DNA from: Eubacteriales bacterium
GTDB lineage: Bacteria > Bacillota > Clostridia > Oscillospirales > QAKW01
Direction: 5' to 3'
NCBI GenBank assembly: GCA_045603925.1
Contig: JAZUNB010000105.1
Span: forward strand, 1-46,707
DNA: 46,707 bases
In this document: positions 426 through 7,872 of the stretch, in pieces
Layout: every line of letters starts with the position of its first letter
Position numbering within the stretch: position 1 is the stretch's first letter
Translations under genes and position numbers: made by a program
The notes under the pieces: model-generated
Told to the model about the DNA's origin: nothing
What the model saw: the letters and a program-made list of their open reading frames with translations, nothing else
Databases searched by the model: none

Positions 426-1975
426 ATGAAAAGTTCCATCAACAAAAGCATATCCACACTGACAATTTTATTTATGATGTTTTCTTGCCTTGTTTTTGTG
501 CACCCTCCTCATGTCGAGGCTAGCACCATTACATTGTATCCTACAAGTTATGCTTATTAAAACCAGCTCCATATTGGACTTGTTCCCCATTTGATGAATT
601 CTCAACCACTCAACAAGTAACGATTCTAGAACGCGATTACGATTTTTTCTATGTAGAGTATATAAAAAATGGGCAAACACGACGAGGGTATGTCTCAATG
701 TCACACTTCAACTCTACCGATTATCACGGATATCATTGGTGCAATCACACTCACTTTACTCCCGGCTACAATAATTCAGGAAACACTATAACTACCTATT
801 ATACTCCTTCAGGTTCTGTTTCTTCTGGTTCTATCGATGGTGATGAAGGCATTAATTCAAATAAGCCTATCCTCGTATTGCGATATGAAGGTTCCCGTGC
901 ATTTATTCAATATGTAACTAATCCGGGAGCTTCAGGACATGTCTTATATAAACGAGCATGGGTTAACTCAACTTCTATATCTTTATCACAACCAAGTGCT
1001 TCACTCAGTTCTTCGATATACACATTAATAAAAAATGAAAAAACAGGATTATACCTTCAAGTTCAAACAACCTCCTCCGGATATAGCTTATCTGAAGCAA
1101 GCCCAACAGGATATTACGAACAACAATGGCAAATACTCAGATACAACTCCGCCAATGAGGGATACTACTATAAAATTTATAATCCAGCGTACAATCTCGC
1201 GTTAGAGGTCGATCACAAAACTGCAGTCGTCGAAAACCAAATCAAAGTGTCTACATTAAATTCCCCAAATAAAGCACAAGAATTTTCAATCAAGTATGTA
1301 ACATCAAATACATATAAACTACTCACACGTTGTAGCGGTTATTTTATGACTGTAGAAGGCGAAGGGACTATCACTCAAGAAAAACAAACCGGAGCCAGTA
1401 ATCAAAATTGGGTCTTTGAATTAATGGACAAATACTGGCTCAATTCATATAGAAATTTAACCGAATCCAATGGAAAAAAAGTTTTTCCATATTATATTGA
1501 CACAAGTAATTCCACCGGTATTGGCACACTTGACTTTACTGTTTCACAGGTACAAACTGCAGCGGAAAATTGGAATAATATCAATGCAAATATTCAGTTG
1601 GTTCGCGTTTATAATGTTAGTGATGCTTTAATACGTATACAAGCGCGTGCAATTACGGATGGATTGGCAGCAACATCTCCAAATACTGGTGATTTAGGAG
1701 GATCCTGGGATTATGTTGTGATACGGATCAACACGAACCGTTCCTCTGAACTTACCCCAATGACCAATGAACAAAAGATAAAACTATTATGCCATGAATT
1801 AGGCCACGCTCTCAAACTCCAACACCCGTATGGAGAAGGTGCGGCTGGACGTGTTGTATATAGTGTCATGTGCCAAGGCATTTTTTCAAATACCGACAGC
1901 CAAAACTATCATAAAATTGCCAAATCACCTACTGCATATGATATACGAACAGCAAAAACAAAGTGGGGAGGTTAA
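426..1975 (+). pseudogene. Secreted zinc metalloprotease (signal peptide, 2x SH3b-like, ricin-B lectin, M10/matrixin-like peptidase) split by a 1-nt frameshift near 555-560; may be intact in vivo if the shift is an assembly error
   Basis: RBS GAGGTG (415-420) and ATG 426 give MKSSINKSISTLTILFMMFSCLVFVHPPHVEA|STITLYPTSYAY* (TAA 558-560). The frame of ORF 698..1975 is open from 524 and reads ...LKPAPYWTCSPFDEFSTTQQVTILERDYDFFYVEYIKNGQTRRGYVSMSHF. Ricin QxW/F repeats: EQQWQI, AQEFSI, NQNWVF. Zinc motif HELGHALKLQH (1793-1825) and Met-turn SVM. Confidence 0.75.
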
Positions 1976-1979
1976 AAAT

Positions 1980-2744
1980 ATGAAAAAACGATTTATATTC
2001 ATCATCACGCTTTTACTTTGCACTTTTCTTTGCGGATGTAGTTCTTCTATTATAAGTTTTGGAAAGCCGATAGAGCTCAGTCATTTTGATATTGTAGAAG
2101 TTTCTGCTCTTTCTGATGATCGGATCATTTATGATTCTTTAGCAGACAGGCAAGAACACCTGCGTTTGGATTATAATATTGTTTTTCGCGGAAAACTGGA
2201 TGGAAAGCGCATTGCATATGCTGATGAGAGCGGCGAAGGGTTTCCGGATTTCACCTATTTTGAGACACCCATTAGGGTATTAGAGGTCTTCTATGGTGAT
2301 GTACAAACAAATGACATCGTTCTGCTTTGCGAAGATTTCTTTATTGGAATAAATGAAAATAAAGAAGAGTTTTTGGGATGCTATGAAAACCGTCCTTTCA
2401 TCGAAGAAGGAAAAGAATATCTTTTTATTCTCAATAATATGCCGAATCTTCCGGCAAACAATGGAGAAAAACTATATTGTAGCGAGCAAAGTATTTATGC
2501 AATTACTGACTATGACACATTTAAACAAGAAGCCCATTCAGGAAATTCTGATGCAAAAATCGGATTGGAGGCAATTGACTACTACATCAATCAAGATACA
2601 CCCGATCTTCAAGTAGATGTAGAAAAAGAAACTCAGAAAATGATTCAAGCGAATGGAAAAGATGCCATAGTACTTACGGAAGAGCAGCAAACACTGCTAA
2701 ACAATATGGTTGAACAATACGGAGAAAAAAACAATAATGCATAA
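1980..2744 (+). CDS. Lipoprotein with TIMP-like/OB-fold motif pattern
   Basis: RBS GGGAGG just upstream; ATG 1980 in frame with ORF 1830..2744; MKKRFIFIITLLLCTFLCGC lipobox; pattern YDSL...IVFRGKL...TPIRVLEVFYG...IEEGKEYLFIL. Confidence 0.8.
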   Translation: MKKRFIFIITLLLCTFLCGCSSSIISFGKPIELSHFDIVEVSALSDDRIIYDSLADRQEHLRLDYNIVFRGKLDGKRIAYADESGEGFPDFTYFETPIRVLEVFYGDVQTNDIVLLCEDFFIGINENKEEFLGCYENRPFIEEGKEYLFILNNMPNLPANNGEKLYCSEQSIYAITDYDTFKQEAHSGNSDAKIGLEAIDYYINQDTPDLQVDVEKETQKMIQANGKDAIVLTEEQQTLLNNMVEQYGEKNNNA

Positions 2745-2745
2745 G

Positions 2746-2779
2746 AAAAACAGGGTTGCTTTCGCAACGCTGTTTTTTT
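2746..2779. terminator. Bidirectional intrinsic terminator between convergent genes
   Basis: AAAAACAGGGTTGC-TTTC-GCAACGCTGTTTTTTT hairpin with A and T tracts on either side. Confidence 0.75.
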
Positions 2780-3593
2780 AATCTTCAATACCCAATTCGG
2801 CAAGGTCGATGGTGATACTGCCGATGCCGCCATCGATCTCCACCCACGCTTCGCCGGTTCCGTATACGGTACCGTTCTTCATGGGCTCGCCGCGGTAGGT
2901 GGCTTCGCCAACGCCCTTATCCAAGCGGATGCTATAGGCTTCTGGGTCGATCAACATAAGATCCACCTTCCCGATTCCGCAGTCAATTTGGCTTTTGCCG
3001 GTCAGGCGGGCGGTGAAGTTCAGTTCACCGACTCCCAGATCCATATCCAGATTTTGGATCGTACTATCCTGCAGGATAATTTGCCCTGCTCCACCGTCAA
3101 TTTCGGCCTTTTGGGAGACCGAAAGATCGGCAAGCACCGTTTTTCCTGCACCAAGGCTCAGATCCAGCTCCCCGATCTGCAGACCGGAGAGTTCGATCTC
3201 TCCTGCGCCGCCATCGATCTCAACCTCCTTCAGAAGCCGATCCCGAGGCAGGCAGACGGTCAAGGTACCGCCCTCTCTTTTCAGCCAACCGGCAGGGCGC
3301 TCGGTAATCACCAGGCGGGTTCCTTTTTCCACGCAGTTGATATACGGATTATCGGTTTCTACCGAAAAGGCGGAGCCGATCTTAACGGAAAGTTTTACGC
3401 CGGTTACATCGATCTCCAATTCATCGATAAAATCGCTGACGGTCTTGCTCTCTTGGGAGGGCACAGAGGAAGAAAGATCTTCCACCAACACAATGCCGCC
3501 CAGCAGCTTCAGCCCGCCGCCCACAATGCCGACGATGATGGCGATGGCAAGGGCCAGCGCCAGATATTTTACAATTCTTTGGGCGGTATTCAT
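2778..3593 (-). CDS. DUF4097-like (putative adhesin) beta-strand repeat membrane protein
   Basis: Start likely MNTAQRIVK (ATG 3593, overlapping the upstream stop); N-terminal TM helix; repeated [EV]IDGGxG / LxLGxG units. Confidence 0.8.
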   Translation of the reverse strand: MNTAQRIVKYLALALAIAIIVGIVGGGLKLLGGIVLVEDLSSSVPSQESKTVSDFIDELEIDVTGVKLSVKIGSAFSVETDNPYINCVEKGTRLVITERPAGWLKREGGTLTVCLPRDRLLKEVEIDGGAGEIELSGLQIGELDLSLGAGKTVLADLSVSQKAEIDGGAGQIILQDSTIQNLDMDLGVGELNFTARLTGKSQIDCGIGKVDLMLIDPEAYSIRLDKGVGEATYRGEPMKNGTVYGTGEAWVEIDGGIGSITIDLAELGIED

Positions 3594-4270
3594 TTGAGAT
3601 CCGCACCTCCGAAGAGGCACCAGCCGGTGACATAAACGGTGGGGGCATTCTCCCCTGCGTTTTTATGCTTATTGCTGACGCCGCCGAAGATGGAGGTGGT
3701 TGCCACCTTTACATTGACATTCTCGGGCAGCAATACATCGATACCGCCGAAGATGGCAGAGACCTTTACCGCCGCATCTTTCGTGATAATGGCTTCCCGA
3801 AGATCGCATTTCATCCCGCCGAAAACGACATTGAGCTCGACCCCTTCGAAGATCACACCGGAATAGTTCAGATCCTGGCCGGAAAAGACCGCGCCGTATT
3901 CCTGGAAGGCGCCGCTTTCCGCCTGCACGCGGGCATAGCCTTCTCTGGCCTTTTTATCGGAAAAGGGCTTGAAGATCATCCGCGCGCCGATGATGATAAT
4001 AACAGCAGGAACCAGCAGTTTCCAAAGCAGATCAAAGGCGATCCAATCTTGGCAAGCGGCCAGCAAACTGACACCGAGGGCAATACCAAACAGATTGCCG
4101 GTCTTATCCGCCTCGGTAAACAAACCAATGGCGCAGGGGACGATGATAAAGAGGGTCCACCAACCGTCAAACAACAGATCAATATGGGCAATTCCCAATA
4201 CATTCAGCGCCAGAACAACGCCTACTGCAATGAGGATCACGCCCCAAACAATGTTTTTACCTTGTTTCAT
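3590..4270 (-). CDS. LiaF-like cell-wall stress response membrane protein (TM bundle plus DUF2154-like beta domain)
   Basis: Four N-terminal TM segments (WWTLFIIVP...); C-terminal repeats AVFSG, VVFGG, AIFGG, SIFGG, LFGG. Confidence 0.75.
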   Translation of the reverse strand: MKQGKNIVWGVILIAVGVVLALNVLGIAHIDLLFDGWWTLFIIVPCAIGLFTEADKTGNLFGIALGVSLLAACQDWIAFDLLWKLLVPAVIIIIGARMIFKPFSDKKAREGYARVQAESGAFQEYGAVFSGQDLNYSGVIFEGVELNVVFGGMKCDLREAIITKDAAVKVSAIFGGIDVLLPENVNVKVATTSIFGGVSNKHKNAGENAPTVYVTGWCLFGGADLK

Positions 4271-4279
4271 CGCAAATTC

Positions 4280-5230
4280 CTACCTTTCTATATAATTTTC
4301 AAAATACACTTGCTTCACCCGAAAGACCTTCTTATTTAAATAAGAAAGAAAATGCTCCTCGGGCAATTTGAATTCCAAAGAATAAGCATAGAGTGCCTGG
4401 TGCTTAAAGGGCAGGCCGCGGTTCAGGGAGGCGGTGCCGTATTTCAGGTCGCCTGCCACCGGATGGCCGATGGAGGCCAGGTGGGCGCGGATCTGATGGG
4501 TGCGGCCTGTTACCAGCTCCACCTCCAAAAGAGAGACGCCCTTTCCTTCCTTTAACACCCGATAGCGGGTAATGATCTCCTTAAAGCCTTCTTTTTTGGT
4601 TTTGGAGATCTCCACTTTATTTTCCTTGGGATCCTTTTTCAGCCAACCCTTTAAGGTGGCTTGCTTTTTTTCAAAGGTACCTAATGCTAAGGTGAGATAC
4701 CGCTTTTCTACCTGACGGTATTTCACGATCTCATAAAGGGCCCTTCCTGCCGCCGCATTTTTGGCAACGATGACGATGCCGCCTGTATTCTGATCCAGAC
4801 GGTTGCAAAGGGCGGGGGTAAAAGAGGCTTCCGCCTCGGGATCATAGTCGCCCTTTTCATAAAGATAGAGCAACACATGGTTGATGAGGGTATCGCGGCT
4901 GCCATGGGTATCGGCATGGACGGGAACGCCCGCCTTTTTATCCACCAGCAGCAGATTCTCATCCTCATAAACGACAGACAGCTCCGGGCGATAGCCGATG
5001 GCGCGAAAATCCTCGCTTTTTGCGGTGAAGAATTCATCGTTGATATACATCTCCACCACATCGCCCACCGAAAGGCGGGTATTGCCCTCGGCCCGCTTGC
5101 CATTGACCTTAATGGCTTTTTTTCGCAAATATTTGTACATCAGCGACGGGCTTAAATTGCCCGCCGCTTTTTGCACAAATTTATCCAGACGCTGGTCCGC
5201 ATCGTTTTCGGTAATCACAAATTTCTTCAT
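4280..5230 (-). CDS. RluA/RluD family pseudouridine synthase with S4 domain
   Basis: QRLDKF S4 start, catalytic NRLDQNTGG, TGRTHQIRAHL, GDLKYG. Confidence 0.93.
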   Translation of the reverse strand: MKKFVITENDADQRLDKFVQKAAGNLSPSLMYKYLRKKAIKVNGKRAEGNTRLSVGDVVEMYINDEFFTAKSEDFRAIGYRPELSVVYEDENLLLVDKKAGVPVHADTHGSRDTLINHVLLYLYEKGDYDPEAEASFTPALCNRLDQNTGGIVIVAKNAAAGRALYEIVKYRQVEKRYLTLALGTFEKKQATLKGWLKKDPKENKVEISKTKKEGFKEIITRYRVLKEGKGVSLLEVELVTGRTHQIRAHLASIGHPVAGDLKYGTASLNRGLPFKHQALYAYSLEFKLPEEHFLSYLNKKVFRVKQVYFENYIER

Positions 5231-7872
5231 TCAAACCGCCAAATCATCTTTTTATATGCCGGCTTCTTCCCCAAGAACCACCGATACCAGAAGGCCTTAA
5301 AGGGATTGGTCTTACGGAAGGTGGCTACATTGAGGCTTTCCGCATAAAGCACCACTGCATCCCGCTCCTCTTCGGTAAAGGAGAGGTCGGAATAGATGGC
5401 CTTTTGCAGGAGAGGTACGATGGGGGTCAAGGGATAATGGGCCAGATAGAGGTTATCGGCTCTCTTGGCAAAGTCTTCCAACAGCTCGCCCTCAAAGAAC
5501 TTAAAGCCCCGCATCTGCATCAGCCGCAAGATCACATAATAGGCCTTACGCACCGCAACATCGGGGGGAAGACGCCGCAGCTCCTGCATCGTCTTCCGAT
5601 GGAGCGCCAAGGCGATCAGATAAATGCCCACCAATACGGCGCAACTGCCGAAGACCAGACCGATGATCAGCAGGATCTTACCCAGATTGGAGCTGATATC
5701 GGTAAAGGTATTGGTTTCTTTTTCCTCTTCGGGCAGAGTGGGATCGGGAAGATCATTGGAATACTTGATATAATCGGGATCGTCGATATACACAATGATC
5801 ACATTGGGCTTGATCTCGTTTTCCTTATTCTCGTCTACCAGCTCCAGAAGGTAATAGTTCCGATCGCCGCCGTAGCCGGGGGTAGGCTCAAAGGTGACCC
5901 AACCCATACCGTCGAAATAAACCTCGACCCAGGCATGGTAGTTATGGTCAAAGAGCACCACACCGTAGTTATCCAGATCGTTGAACTGAGGCTGGGCATA
6001 ATAGCCGGTCACCACTCTGGCGGGGTAGCCGAGGGTCCGCACCATAGAAACCATGGCGGAGGCAAAGAGGGTGCAATAGCCCTCCTTCTTCTCATTTTCA
6101 TAGAGGAAATATTCCAGATAATCATAGGCGGTCGCCTCGGTACCGTCGGCATAGGTCAGCCGCTGGCGGGCGGTGGAATAGGAATAATTGGTTCTTAAGT
6201 ACCGCTCGATGGACTGCACCCGCTCCAGCTTGGTGTTATAAGGCGCGCTGATCTCATTGGCCAGCTTTCTTACATCCTTACGCACCGCATCGGGAACCTC
6301 GGTATAGTTGCGCTGCACAAAGGCGCTGTATTCCGCCTCCATCCGCAGAAGAGGATCGTTATTATAATGCTTGCTGCGCATCTGAATATACTGCTTCTGG
6401 GTGGCATCAAAATTGGTCAGGAACACATTGCTGGTCCAGACGGGAGAGGTCACCTGGAACATATAGGAGCGATCCTCGGGATCATCGTTATGCATCAGGA
6501 TGGTATCGCCCTCGCGGGAGAGGTCATCATAATCGCTGACCGGTCCCTGGGTCACCGTACCCTTGGGCAACGCCAGAAGGTCACTGACCTTATACTGGGG
6601 ATAAACGGTGATATTATCGTTGATATATCCCTGCTCCTCGCTCTCGACGGCATCAAGACCCGCCTTCAGAGGATCTCCGTTGGGGGCGGTCCAGCGCAGA
6701 TAATTATAAAGCTGGGTATACTCGCAGAATTCATAGTCGATCCGCGCTTCCATATCCTCCAGAAAGGCCCCATCGGGGATAGCCCAGCCCTTCTCGGTAA
6801 ACTCCCGGGTGGTACGGAACCGCAGATAGATGGGCGTATCGGTCTTGCTGGTAACGCCTAATACCGAAAGGCCGCGGAAGGTGGGATAGGTCATGGAAAG
6901 GGTCTCCCCCTCCTCCATATAGCCGGCCACATTCAGTTGCTTTTCATAGCGGGCGCGGAAAACGGTATTTCCCACATCCTGGGCAAACTGATCGATGGCC
7001 TCCCGCACCTGCTCCAATTGGAGAATGGGGCGGCTATAGATAAAGGCGGCAGTCCCCATGGTGATGACCAGCATCACACCGGCAATGATCATACCGAAAG
7101 AGCCGTGCCCCGCCGCAAATTCCCAGCGCTGGGCAGTGGTCAGCTTCTTTTTGGTCTTTGCCTTCTTTTCTCTTTTCTTGAATACATTCTTCCAGCCGCC
7201 GGTACGGATGCTTTGCACTACGCTCTGCCCATAGCACCCGATCAGCGCCGAAAGGAAGAGGCTGAAGGCTGCATAATGAGGCACAATACCGTAAGTAAAG
7301 AAGGGGATCATCCCCACCATGGCCACTCCATAAGGGATCAGCATAGGGATCCGGCGGAAAAGCGCCAGCGCAAAGAAGACCGCCGCAATCAGGCTCAAGA
7401 GGATCACTGCAGTATAAAAATGACGGGACAAGATCACGGGGTTTTGCAAAATATCCGTCAGATCCATGGTCATCTTATCCAGATGGCCGGTATAGCCCGC
7501 CTGCGTTCCCAAGCGGTAGATAACATAGTTATAGCAGACCACCAGAGACTGCCCCATGGAACGGTACAGCGGGAAGCTGATGGGATAGGCGATCAGCGAA
7601 AGGCCTGCAATTCCGCCCAAAACACCGAAAAAGACCCGTTTATACCAAACCAGGAAGATCATCAGCGCAAAGGCAACAGCGGTGATCAAAACAGTTGCCA
7701 CTGCAGGAATGCCCATATCCAGGGCGGTGGTATTACAAAAGAGATAGCCCAAAAGACCTGCATAGAGAAGCAGGATCTCCATCAGGATCCCAAAACGGCG
7801 GTTATCGTTCTTAAACTTGATCCGCGGCTCCACCGGAATGGGCTTGATTTTTTTATTTTCGTTTTTTGTCAT
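5227..7872 (-). CDS. Multi-pass membrane transglutaminase-like domain protein (TgpA-like)
   Basis: N-terminal TM helices; GYCTLFASAM (Cys), PARVVTGY, HAWVEVYFDGMGWVTFEPTPG (His, acidic residue); C-terminal TM plus DUF4129-like tail. Confidence 0.88.
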   Translation of the reverse strand: MTKNENKKIKPIPVEPRIKFKNDNRRFGILMEILLLYAGLLGYLFCNTTALDMGIPAVATVLITAVAFALMIFLVWYKRVFFGVLGGIAGLSLIAYPISFPLYRSMGQSLVVCYNYVIYRLGTQAGYTGHLDKMTMDLTDILQNPVILSRHFYTAVILLSLIAAVFFALALFRRIPMLIPYGVAMVGMIPFFTYGIVPHYAAFSLFLSALIGCYGQSVVQSIRTGGWKNVFKKREKKAKTKKKLTTAQRWEFAAGHGSFGMIIAGVMLVITMGTAAFIYSRPILQLEQVREAIDQFAQDVGNTVFRARYEKQLNVAGYMEEGETLSMTYPTFRGLSVLGVTSKTDTPIYLRFRTTREFTEKGWAIPDGAFLEDMEARIDYEFCEYTQLYNYLRWTAPNGDPLKAGLDAVESEEQGYINDNITVYPQYKVSDLLALPKGTVTQGPVSDYDDLSREGDTILMHNDDPEDRSYMFQVTSPVWTSNVFLTNFDATQKQYIQMRSKHYNNDPLLRMEAEYSAFVQRNYTEVPDAVRKDVRKLANEISAPYNTKLERVQSIERYLRTNYSYSTARQRLTYADGTEATAYDYLEYFLYENEKKEGYCTLFASAMVSMVRTLGYPARVVTGYYAQPQFNDLDNYGVVLFDHNYHAWVEVYFDGMGWVTFEPTPGYGGDRNYYLLELVDENKENEIKPNVIIVYIDDPDYIKYSNDLPDPTLPEEEKETNTFTDISSNLGKILLIIGLVFGSCAVLVGIYLIALALHRKTMQELRRLPPDVAVRKAYYVILRLMQMRGFKFFEGELLEDFAKRADNLYLAHYPLTPIVPLLQKAIYSDLSFTEEERDAVVLYAESLNVATFRKTNPFKAFWYRWFLGKKPAYKKMIWRFE

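Follow-up and report, generated by a model that had tools for sequence, protein, structure and literature searches.

Does a bacterial genome encode a secreted zinc protease together with a partner shaped like an animal tissue inhibitor of metalloproteinases (TIMP), and what would such a partner do at the surface of its producer? This question is raised by two co-oriented genes, here called gene 1 and gene 2, at the end of contig JAZUNB010000105.1 of a Eubacteriales bacterium (assembly GCA_045603925.1). The window, i.e. the whole stretch of 46,707 nucleotides (nt) that was analysed, is the entire 46.7-kb contig, and the source genome is a 1.9-Mb draft in 156 contigs. The two genes form a low-GC cassette for a lectin-bearing secreted zinc protease and a TIMP-shaped, membrane-anchored lipoprotein. 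Taken as a whole, the data are probably best explained by a mobile cassette whose lipoprotein is a dedicated partner, docking over the zinc site of the protease and blocking it. Direct results of the analysis are the domain content of both products, the fold resemblance of the lipoprotein, the conserved adjacency of the two genes and a high-scoring predicted interface between their products.

The first 2.75 kb of the window have a guanine-plus-cytosine (GC) content of 0.31–0.40 (0.37 for the cassette) versus about 0.52 in the rest of the contig, and it is this stretch that holds the two genes. In most related loci having flanks the GC content of the cassette likewise lies below that of its surroundings. 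The features of the cassette are as follows; residues of the gene 1 product are counted from the first codon of the gene 1 body.

426–560, plus strand: 5' part of gene 1 with start codon and Sec-type signal peptide (MKSSINKSISTLTILFMMFSCLVFVHPPHVEA...); in-frame TAA at 558–560
524–1975, plus strand: gene 1 body in a different frame, 483 codons, stop codon at 1973–1975
551–973, plus strand: two small all-beta, SH3b-like segments (body residues ~10–58 and ~75–150), tentatively assigned; strands modelled all-beta, pLDDT 48–92
1001–1426, plus strand: ricin-type beta-trefoil lectin (residues ~160–301), matched by PF14200 RicinB_lectin_2 in 3 stretches
1430–1972, plus strand: M10-like metzincin catalytic domain (residues ~303–483), from profile and Foldseek matches
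1793–1825, plus strand: zinc-binding motif HELGHALKLQH (residues 424–434), read from the sequence
1862–1870, plus strand: Met-turn SVM (residues 447–449), read from the sequence
1980–2744, plus strand: gene 2, lipoprotein of 254 residues, stop codon at 2742–2744
1980–2039, plus strand: signal peptide of gene 2 with lipobox LCGC, read from the sequence; Cys20 (2037–2039) is the predicted lipid anchor
2115–2618, plus strand: NTR/TIMP-like OB barrel with flanking helices (residues 46–213), from the structure model and fold searches
2619–2741, plus strand: C-terminal helical extension, L-T-x-E-Q-x-x-L-x-x-M-x-x-Q-Y-G, present in most, not all, relatives
2755–2780: terminator-like hairpin with a T-run on either strand, closing the cassette where the GC content rises from 0.37 to about 0.52

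Fold and anchor of the lipoprotein

Gene 2 begins, as an earlier note on this DNA had stated, 4 nt past the stop codon of gene 1 (ATG at 1980, stop at 1973–1975), and its ATG is preceded by GGAGG. The strings which that note had quoted for a TIMP-like strand pattern are all found in the product: YDSL at residues 51–54, IVFRGKL at 67–73, TPIRVLEVFYG at 96–106 and GKEYLFIL at 144–151. Searches of annotated sequences gave little, with no Pfam family matched at E ≤ 1, nothing useful in NCBIfam, no hit among PDB sequences at E ≤ 10, and only the protein itself recovered among 203 candidates by a word-index protein search. A full HMMER search of 1.84 billion representatives yielded 31 relatives (E ≤ 1e-10 for 13), which public records name 'hypothetical protein' and none of which matched PF00965 (TIMP) or PF01759 (NTR) at E ≤ 0.01. 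All of them are lipoproteins or otherwise anchored. A low-complexity tether, which varies among them, leads to a conserved core in which G106 is found without exception and E118, Y147, Y166 and Y202 almost without exception.

The AlphaFold model based on the 31-relative alignment (pLDDT 91.4, pTM 0.86) comprises a beta barrel at residues 66–174 and, behind it, four helices. Among PDB structures Foldseek matched it best to C345C/NTR domains from complement C3, C5 and C4 (lowest E 4.5e-4, for C3), and TIMP-1, -2 and -3 were matched at E values of about 1e-2 to 4e-2 (1.1e-2 for TIMP-1); a realignment of these candidates agrees with the NTR/TIMP ranking. An aligner independent of Foldseek placed N-TIMP-3 on top (Z 7.5, rmsd 3.4, 116 of 121 residues, model residues 46–213 on TIMP residues 1–121). 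In its wide search the first 11 rows were all NTR-type modules (Z 7.5–5.8), the ten after N-TIMP-3 coming from C4, C3, C5, agrin NtA, TIMP-1, meteorin and PCOLCE (Z 7.4–5.8), and generic OB folds reached at most 5.7. TIMP residue 1 aligned to model residue 46 in 8 of 8 TIMP rows. In addition, TIMP, NtA and NTR clusters were the nearest annotated ones in a protein-language-model search (0.76–0.80), which is taken as a lead only. Foldseek against viral structure predictions gave no match at E ≤ 0.001. The TIMP-like OB fold that had been proposed for gene 2 is thus recovered in the model, with NTR/TIMP modules ranking best in both fold searches. Because the scores are middling, the likeness to TIMP and NTR is taken as a resemblance at the level of the fold and not as homology.

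Animal TIMPs act through an N-terminal cysteine, and the earlier note had pointed to the cysteine with which the mature lipoprotein begins. The lipobox Cys20 is kept in at least 90% of the 31 relatives and is the sole conserved cysteine among them; conserved cysteine pairs or a disulfide pattern were not found in any of the 31. Between this cysteine and the barrel lies an unconserved tether whose length ranges from about 10 to more than 120 residues. Because the variable tether parts the two, the lipidated cysteine cannot act as the Cys1 of a TIMP. Zinc binding in the TIMP manner was therefore rejected, and the residue is seen as a lipid anchor only.

The protease and its interrupted reading frame

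Relatives of the gene 1 body are 36–52% identical to it across 69–98% of the query, and the AlphaFold model of the product has a pLDDT of 84 and a pTM of 0.81. The three-lobed ricin-type lectin described in the earlier note was confirmed by PF14200 (E 2.3e-16, 60.7 bits versus a cut-off of 25.6), by the superposition of residues 161–301 on the beta-trefoil 3vsf_A (Z 19.5, rmsd 2.4, 130 residues aligned) and by a profile match to ThreeFoil (E 7.4e-12). As to the two SH3b-like segments also claimed there, the model agrees with all-beta strands, but the assignment to SH3 is tentative: Pfam SH3_3 matched 4 of 6 N-terminal segments under its 27-bit cut-off (best E 0.0023) and in the first segment alone, a profile search of PDB sequences returned no SH3 entries, and the wide fold search with the whole protease was filled by trefoils.

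Both catalytic signatures, the zinc-binding motif and the Met-turn, were located where the list above gives them. Neither of the two family alignments (A1 and A3) shows any variation at H424, E425, G427 or H428; H434 is invariant in A3 and nearly so in A1, and S447 and M449 are kept in at least 90% of the relatives. The motif departs from HExxHxxGxxH in having Lys431 (window 1814–1816) in the position of the glycine, the three histidines and the glutamate being present. This lysine is common to 8 of the 9 A1 relatives that cover the stretch, and more distant partner-linked proteases have Gly or Ser instead.

The affiliation of the protease follows from profiles and fold rather than from single sequences, since single-protein searches of PDB sequences found no match. 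With the family profile, PrtC (1.6e-5) and serralysin (4.2e-5; PrtC/serralysin entries up to 5e-5) came before karilysin (6.7e-5) and MMP-8 with the vertebrate MMPs (0.11). Serralysin is also nearest in Foldseek (E 5e-6, 24% identity), and NCBIfam Zn_serralysin was matched at E 1e-4, far under its cut-off. Pfam PF00413 (Peptidase_M10) did not match the gene 1 product at E ≤ 1; 6 of 10 members of its family matched weakly (best E 0.0013), and among more distant partner-linked proteases 5 of 13 scanned passed the cut-off. M10A enzymes are marked by a prodomain with a cysteine switch, M10B enzymes by an RTX C-terminal domain and a tyrosine in the Met-turn. In the gene 1 product neither a PRCG-type motif nor a prodomain was found, the N-terminus being lectin-type; an RTX domain is absent, the protein ending 34 residues past the Met-turn, and the latter reads SVMCQG with no tyrosine. 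Because prodomain and RTX domain are lacking and Lys replaces Gly, the enzyme is classed as an M10-like metzincin, with serralysin and karilysin as its closest matches, and not as a demonstrated matrixin, so that the M10A identity formerly assumed was given up.

Gene 1 had also been taken for one continuous open reading frame (ORF) from 426, which it is not. The ATG at 426, behind GAGGTG, opens a signal-peptide frame of 44 codons (426–557) that stops at 558–560, and the remainder lies in another frame, whose first in-frame ATG is at 698 and which has no further stops across its 483 codons. Intact relatives of 497–536 residues cross the junction in a single frame (...TLYPxxYTYVKPAPYW...), which places a frame change of one base somewhere within 524–560. 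Either a genuine pseudogene or a mistake in the assembly may lie behind it. Programmed frameshifting at 555–560 seems unlikely, as no slippery heptamer was seen there and the relatives use a single frame.

With an interrupted protease gene, the lipoprotein may be the only functional product of the cassette in this contig. There is nearly an even chance that the cassette is a decaying relic here, the protease being a pseudogene from which nothing is secreted and the lipoprotein surviving as an orphan protector or as an outgoing gene. Apart from the frame change itself, interrupted protease genes at other loci fit such decay, namely at L030 (3–1532, in-frame stops), L018 (1048–2859, one stop dividing two ORFs) and probably L046 (2501–4050), where the adjoining lipoprotein gene is intact in each case. 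On the other hand, a one-base error is possible in a draft assembly of 156 contigs, the two public DNA runs (contigs, low depth) that hold parts of the region leave 300–647 uncovered, and the long stop-free body speaks against decay.

Conservation of the pairing and the predicted complex

With the protease as query 16 related loci were found, two of which are cut by contig ends, leaving 14 testable ones. At 11 of these an ORF of the lipoprotein family lies directly downstream on the same strand (E ≤ 7.3e-5), including a metagenome-assembled genome (MAG) of the Selenomonadaceae (L003). At one further locus the partner was matched by the second-round profile only (E 9e-8), one has two tandem lipoproteins downstream that were not assigned to the gene 2 family, and one, a 233-residue protein in a Rhizobium MAG, has no lipoprotein-family partner downstream. 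In 16 pairs measured the lipoprotein ORF starts between −55 and +19 nt from the protease stop codon. The lipoprotein query matched 32 of 401 genomes in a sample of the order, many weak matches covering the signal peptide only, and a metzincin lies directly upstream at 6 of the 18 loci fetched. In a sample of the phylum 9 of 401 genomes were matched, the window's own genome counted; of the 10 loci in other genomes, 4 stand behind a small secreted metzincin, and at 1 the two partners are fused. The small M10 and partner pairs of large Bacillota genomes match the gene 2 family profile. Homologues of the lipoprotein thus stand directly after M10-type peptidases in searches from either side, in line with the coupling claimed in the earlier note. 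Scans with the protease alignment added little: 594 pattern matches in metagenome contigs with 0 confirmed, and 600 in genome contigs with only 2 confirmed loci.

The natural fusion is a single secreted protein of 367 residues (L071, G562:C9, 1399–2502, minus strand) with an M10 domain (30.8 bits versus a cut-off of 24; HEFGHALGLDH at residue 131) and a C-terminal OB domain (E 2.2e-16), in which Gln replaces the nearly invariant Glu. Furthermore, tandem arrays of 2 to 4 divergent lipoprotein copies follow a single protease at L027 (3 copies, 3060–5800), L039 (4 copies, 2543–6109), L054 (3 copies, 4200–6806) and L061, and lipoprotein-only loci occur in genomes in which the protease query found none, e.g. 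G007, which is 97% complete.

Some further observations concern the distribution of the lipoprotein family. An array of 3–4 copies at L053 (1641–4925) has no protease nearby. The genome of the window holds a second, distant copy of 333 residues (G000:C57:47688-48344; L044, 4689–5690) with E values of 2.9e-13 in the first and 1.1e-31 in the second profile; no metzincin stands beside it, and it follows an ORF that appears cyclophilin-like from its N-terminal sequence. Orphan lipoprotein genes were also seen beside ORFs whose N-terminal sequences resemble, by eye, ECF-type sigma factors (L032, 62–574 and 3505–4044; L042, 859–1410; L047, 2155–2724; L055, 3219–3788). Finally, the records for a protease relative (P0011 cluster) and for a lipoprotein relative (P0022 cluster) give contigs with the same set of lengths (160279, 159721 and 11652), which suggests one more co-located pair.

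For the predicted complex the catalytic domain (residues 298–483) and the mature lipoprotein (residues 21–254) were supplied, each with its own alignment. The complex scored 0.88 (0.89, 0.88 and 0.86 in three runs) versus 0.01 for the best control. When the tool was calibrated, 58 of 80 solved complexes and 2 of 110 mismatched pairs attained the mark, counts that hold only roughly here because custom alignments were used. The three runs have at least 87% of their 134–136 contacts in common, with a partner pLDDT of at least 88. On the protease side the predicted interface comprises H424, E425, H428, Q433, H434, residues 451–453 and the upper-rim segment 375–392, and on the lipoprotein side residues 41–50, 82–93, 117–123, 152–157 and 167–170, so that a confident interface covers the active-site cleft. 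The barrel edge predicted to face the protease is the one that TIMPs present to MMPs. E118 lies within the interface, the position is acidic in most of 16 first-copy partners, and in the model it is the obvious candidate for the residue nearest to the zinc.

A contact surface of this kind would also be expected of a helper in folding. Lipase-specific foldases and protease prodomains are precedents for such a role, in which the lipoprotein would act as a private extracytoplasmic foldase or a prodomain in trans, assist the protease after Sec export and then be released or degraded. The protease has no prodomain and lectin-type N-terminal modules instead, the partner gene is co-oriented and only 4 nt downstream, the predicted interface covers the active site as a prodomain would, and one natural fusion exists. 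We nevertheless hold this role to be very unlikely, since arrays of 3–4 divergent copies and the persistence of the lipoprotein where the protease is missing or broken would not be expected, and since PotA, an inhibitor lipoprotein of Tannerella forsythia, is reported to have made no contribution to the secretion or maturation of prokarilysin (Ksiazek et al. 2022, PMC9890683).

Processing of the lipoprotein by the protease has a precedent in the Mtz-Tim pair of Listeria monocytogenes (LMRG_00713/LMRG_00714; Boichis et al. 2021, PMC8235301). Mtz removes about 50 N-terminal residues of Tim, whereupon the TIMP-like prediction for Tim becomes sharper, and the phenotypes need both proteins and active Mtz (PMC8235301). 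By analogy, the lipoprotein could be mainly a substrate, the released TIMP-like fragment remodelling or weakening the cell wall alone or together with the protease, which the SH3b-like and lectin modules would aim at the wall. In the model the tether-proximal segment 41–50 runs along the upper-rim strand of the protease in a substrate-like manner, D47 and R48 pairing with L381–A383, and TIMP residue 1 corresponds to model residue 46. Moreover, the low GC content of the cassette is as expected of a mobile element. Against this, no phage or integrase genes were seen in the first 5 kb of the window or adjoining the cassette, and tblastn against 50,697 phage records found no match for the gene 2 product or the catalytic domain; two small partner-linked metzincins gave one match of 27 residues at the zinc motif and one irrelevant match. 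A substrate would not be expected in tandem arrays or as an orphan without protease, and the predicted contacts extend over four loops, far beyond a cleavage site. This processing role is accordingly rated as unlikely, though less so than that of a foldase.

Several observations weigh against a partner that blocks the protease. In Listeria, Mtz cleaves Tim, the phenotype is a sensitisation to lysis that aids phage-mediated lysis, and inhibition was not demonstrated (PMC8235301). The predictor may echo the many solved TIMP-MMP complexes, and segment 41–50 of the lipoprotein is unconserved in distant relatives. Gene 1 is, as described, broken in this very contig. Roughly half of the lipoprotein-family loci examined lack an adjoining protease, which means that the family may have other roles. 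Furthermore, the Z score of 7.5 lies within the range that is typical of the tool where a model lacks a true match, and generic OB folds are only about 2 Z units below the NTR rows. Together with the missing Pfam match to TIMP or NTR, this range would also suit two genes that are mere neighbours without physical interaction, the TIMP likeness being that of any OB fold. Such chance proximity is the least probable of the explanations weighed here: the adjacency is kept in several families within the order, in a further class of the phylum and in the Selenomonadaceae MAG, a natural fusion exists, and the complex score stands far above that of the best control.

Returning to the blocking partner, we infer binding, inhibition, cleavage and the biological target as follows. 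The two-gene cassette would be horizontally mobile. Gene 1 would give a Sec-secreted protease with N-terminal modules binding glycans or the cell wall and an M10-like metzincin end free of a prodomain. Gene 2, whose translation would be closely coupled to that of gene 1, would give a lipoprotein tethered at the outer face of the membrane and carrying the NTR/TIMP-like barrel. Its TIMP-equivalent edge, made up of the pre-barrel segment 41–50, the loops 82–93, 117–123 and 152–157 and the nearly invariant acidic E118, may dock over the zinc site and block it, the lipidated cysteine taking no part in inhibition. In this way the lipoprotein would protect the surface of its producer and, in lipoprotein-only strains, guard against the proteases of neighbours. 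The tether may first be cut near residue 46 by the protease, in the way that Mtz cuts Tim, which would leave a TIMP-like free N-terminus.

A still wider idea, which must be regarded as doubtful and ranks somewhat below the processing role, is that gut Clostridia use such cassettes for antagonism that needs no contact. Secreted metzincins guided by their lectin modules would be directed at the envelopes of neighbouring bacteria, and TIMP-fold lipoproteins would be the immunity proteins, diversified in arrays and kept as orphans after loss of the protease. If the protease activated its inhibitor by a cut at about residue 46, the free N-terminus would lie at the position of TIMP Cys1, and the system could be a bacterial counterpart or ancestor of the animal TIMP mechanism.

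Just past the cassette, two overlapping ORFs of 280 and 226 codons lie on the minus strand (window 2778–4270). The 280-residue product has repeated 'DGGAG/GxG' strands and the 226-residue product is a multi-pass membrane protein; judged by their sequences, they appear to be a module of the host chromosome concerned with the cell envelope.

Relation to known systems

The closest published system is the Mtz-Tim pair of Listeria, followed by the potempins. Mtz-Tim likewise consists of a secreted metzincin and a co-oriented lipoprotein gene behind it with a predicted TIMP-like fold, and Tim has an N-terminal tether of about 50 residues ahead of its TIMP-like part (PMC8235301). This likeness is one of gene arrangement, lipobox and fold. 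Mtz differs in being small and in having a canonical HExxHxxGxxH/D motif, whereas the protease described here carries SH3b-like and ricin-lectin modules and a Lys for the Gly. The partner here is extended by C-terminal helices and is also found in tandem arrays or as an orphan, and no CI/Cro switch or phage genes were seen at the cassette. Pairs of the Mtz-Tim type recur across many Gram-positive bacteria and are tied to mobile DNA (PMC8235301); the list of pairs in that article may already include relatives of the gene 1/gene 2 family.

Potempins of T. forsythia, such as PotA with karilysin, are anchored lipoproteins with a five-stranded OB barrel which are genetically linked to and co-transcribed with a secreted peptidase, among them an MMP-like metzincin (Ksiazek et al. 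2022, PMC9890683). The cleft of the active site is filled by wedge-like barrel loops, the acidic Asp64 binds the zinc and the surface of the producer is protected (PMC9890683). In contrast to gene 2, potempin genes lie upstream of the peptidase gene, their products have 98–132 residues compared with 254, and they belong to the outer membrane of a diderm species of the Bacteroidota. The listed fold matches of the lipoprotein model include no potempin structure, though a structural likeness to PotA, PotC or PotD may still exist.

With the animal TIMP and NTR modules (N-TIMP-1, -2 and -3, C345C, agrin NtA and the NTR domain of PCOLCE) the lipoprotein shares an OB barrel with flanking helices, nearly the whole of N-TIMP being aligned, a similar strand pattern in which a hydrophobic-basic strand is followed by ...V.KG..., and the same barrel edge predicted to face the protease. 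Unlike them, it has no Pfam TIMP or NTR match, no conserved disulfides and no free cysteine at the start of the barrel, and it is held by a lipid anchor via a variable tether. The serralysin inhibitors AprI and Inh (MEROPS I38) are eight-stranded barrels, periplasmic and soluble, and inhibit via an N-terminal trunk. There, too, the gene of a bacterial M10 metzincin has as its neighbour that of a small beta-barrel inhibitor dedicated to it, which guards the envelope of the producer; these proteins differ in giving no fold match to the lipoprotein model. Serralysin inhibitors are also brought up in PMC8235301.

The Listeria pair is the sole bacterial pair of a metzincin and a TIMP-like protein studied at the bench. 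To the question of whether such a partner inhibits its protease, the gene 1/gene 2 family contributes natural variants, namely intact pairs, arrays, orphans and a fusion, in addition to a high-scoring interface with a mutable acidic residue. If inhibition holds, an unannotated lipoprotein family of the Clostridia gains a function, and a pre-animal origin of the protease-inhibitor role of the TIMP/NTR fold becomes a testable question. The pairing of a bacterial metzincin with a TIMP-like lipoprotein is already known; the system described here is distinguished by its lectin-type targeting modules, a lysine within the zinc motif, a partner extended by C-terminal helices, and the occurrence of arrays, orphans and one fusion.

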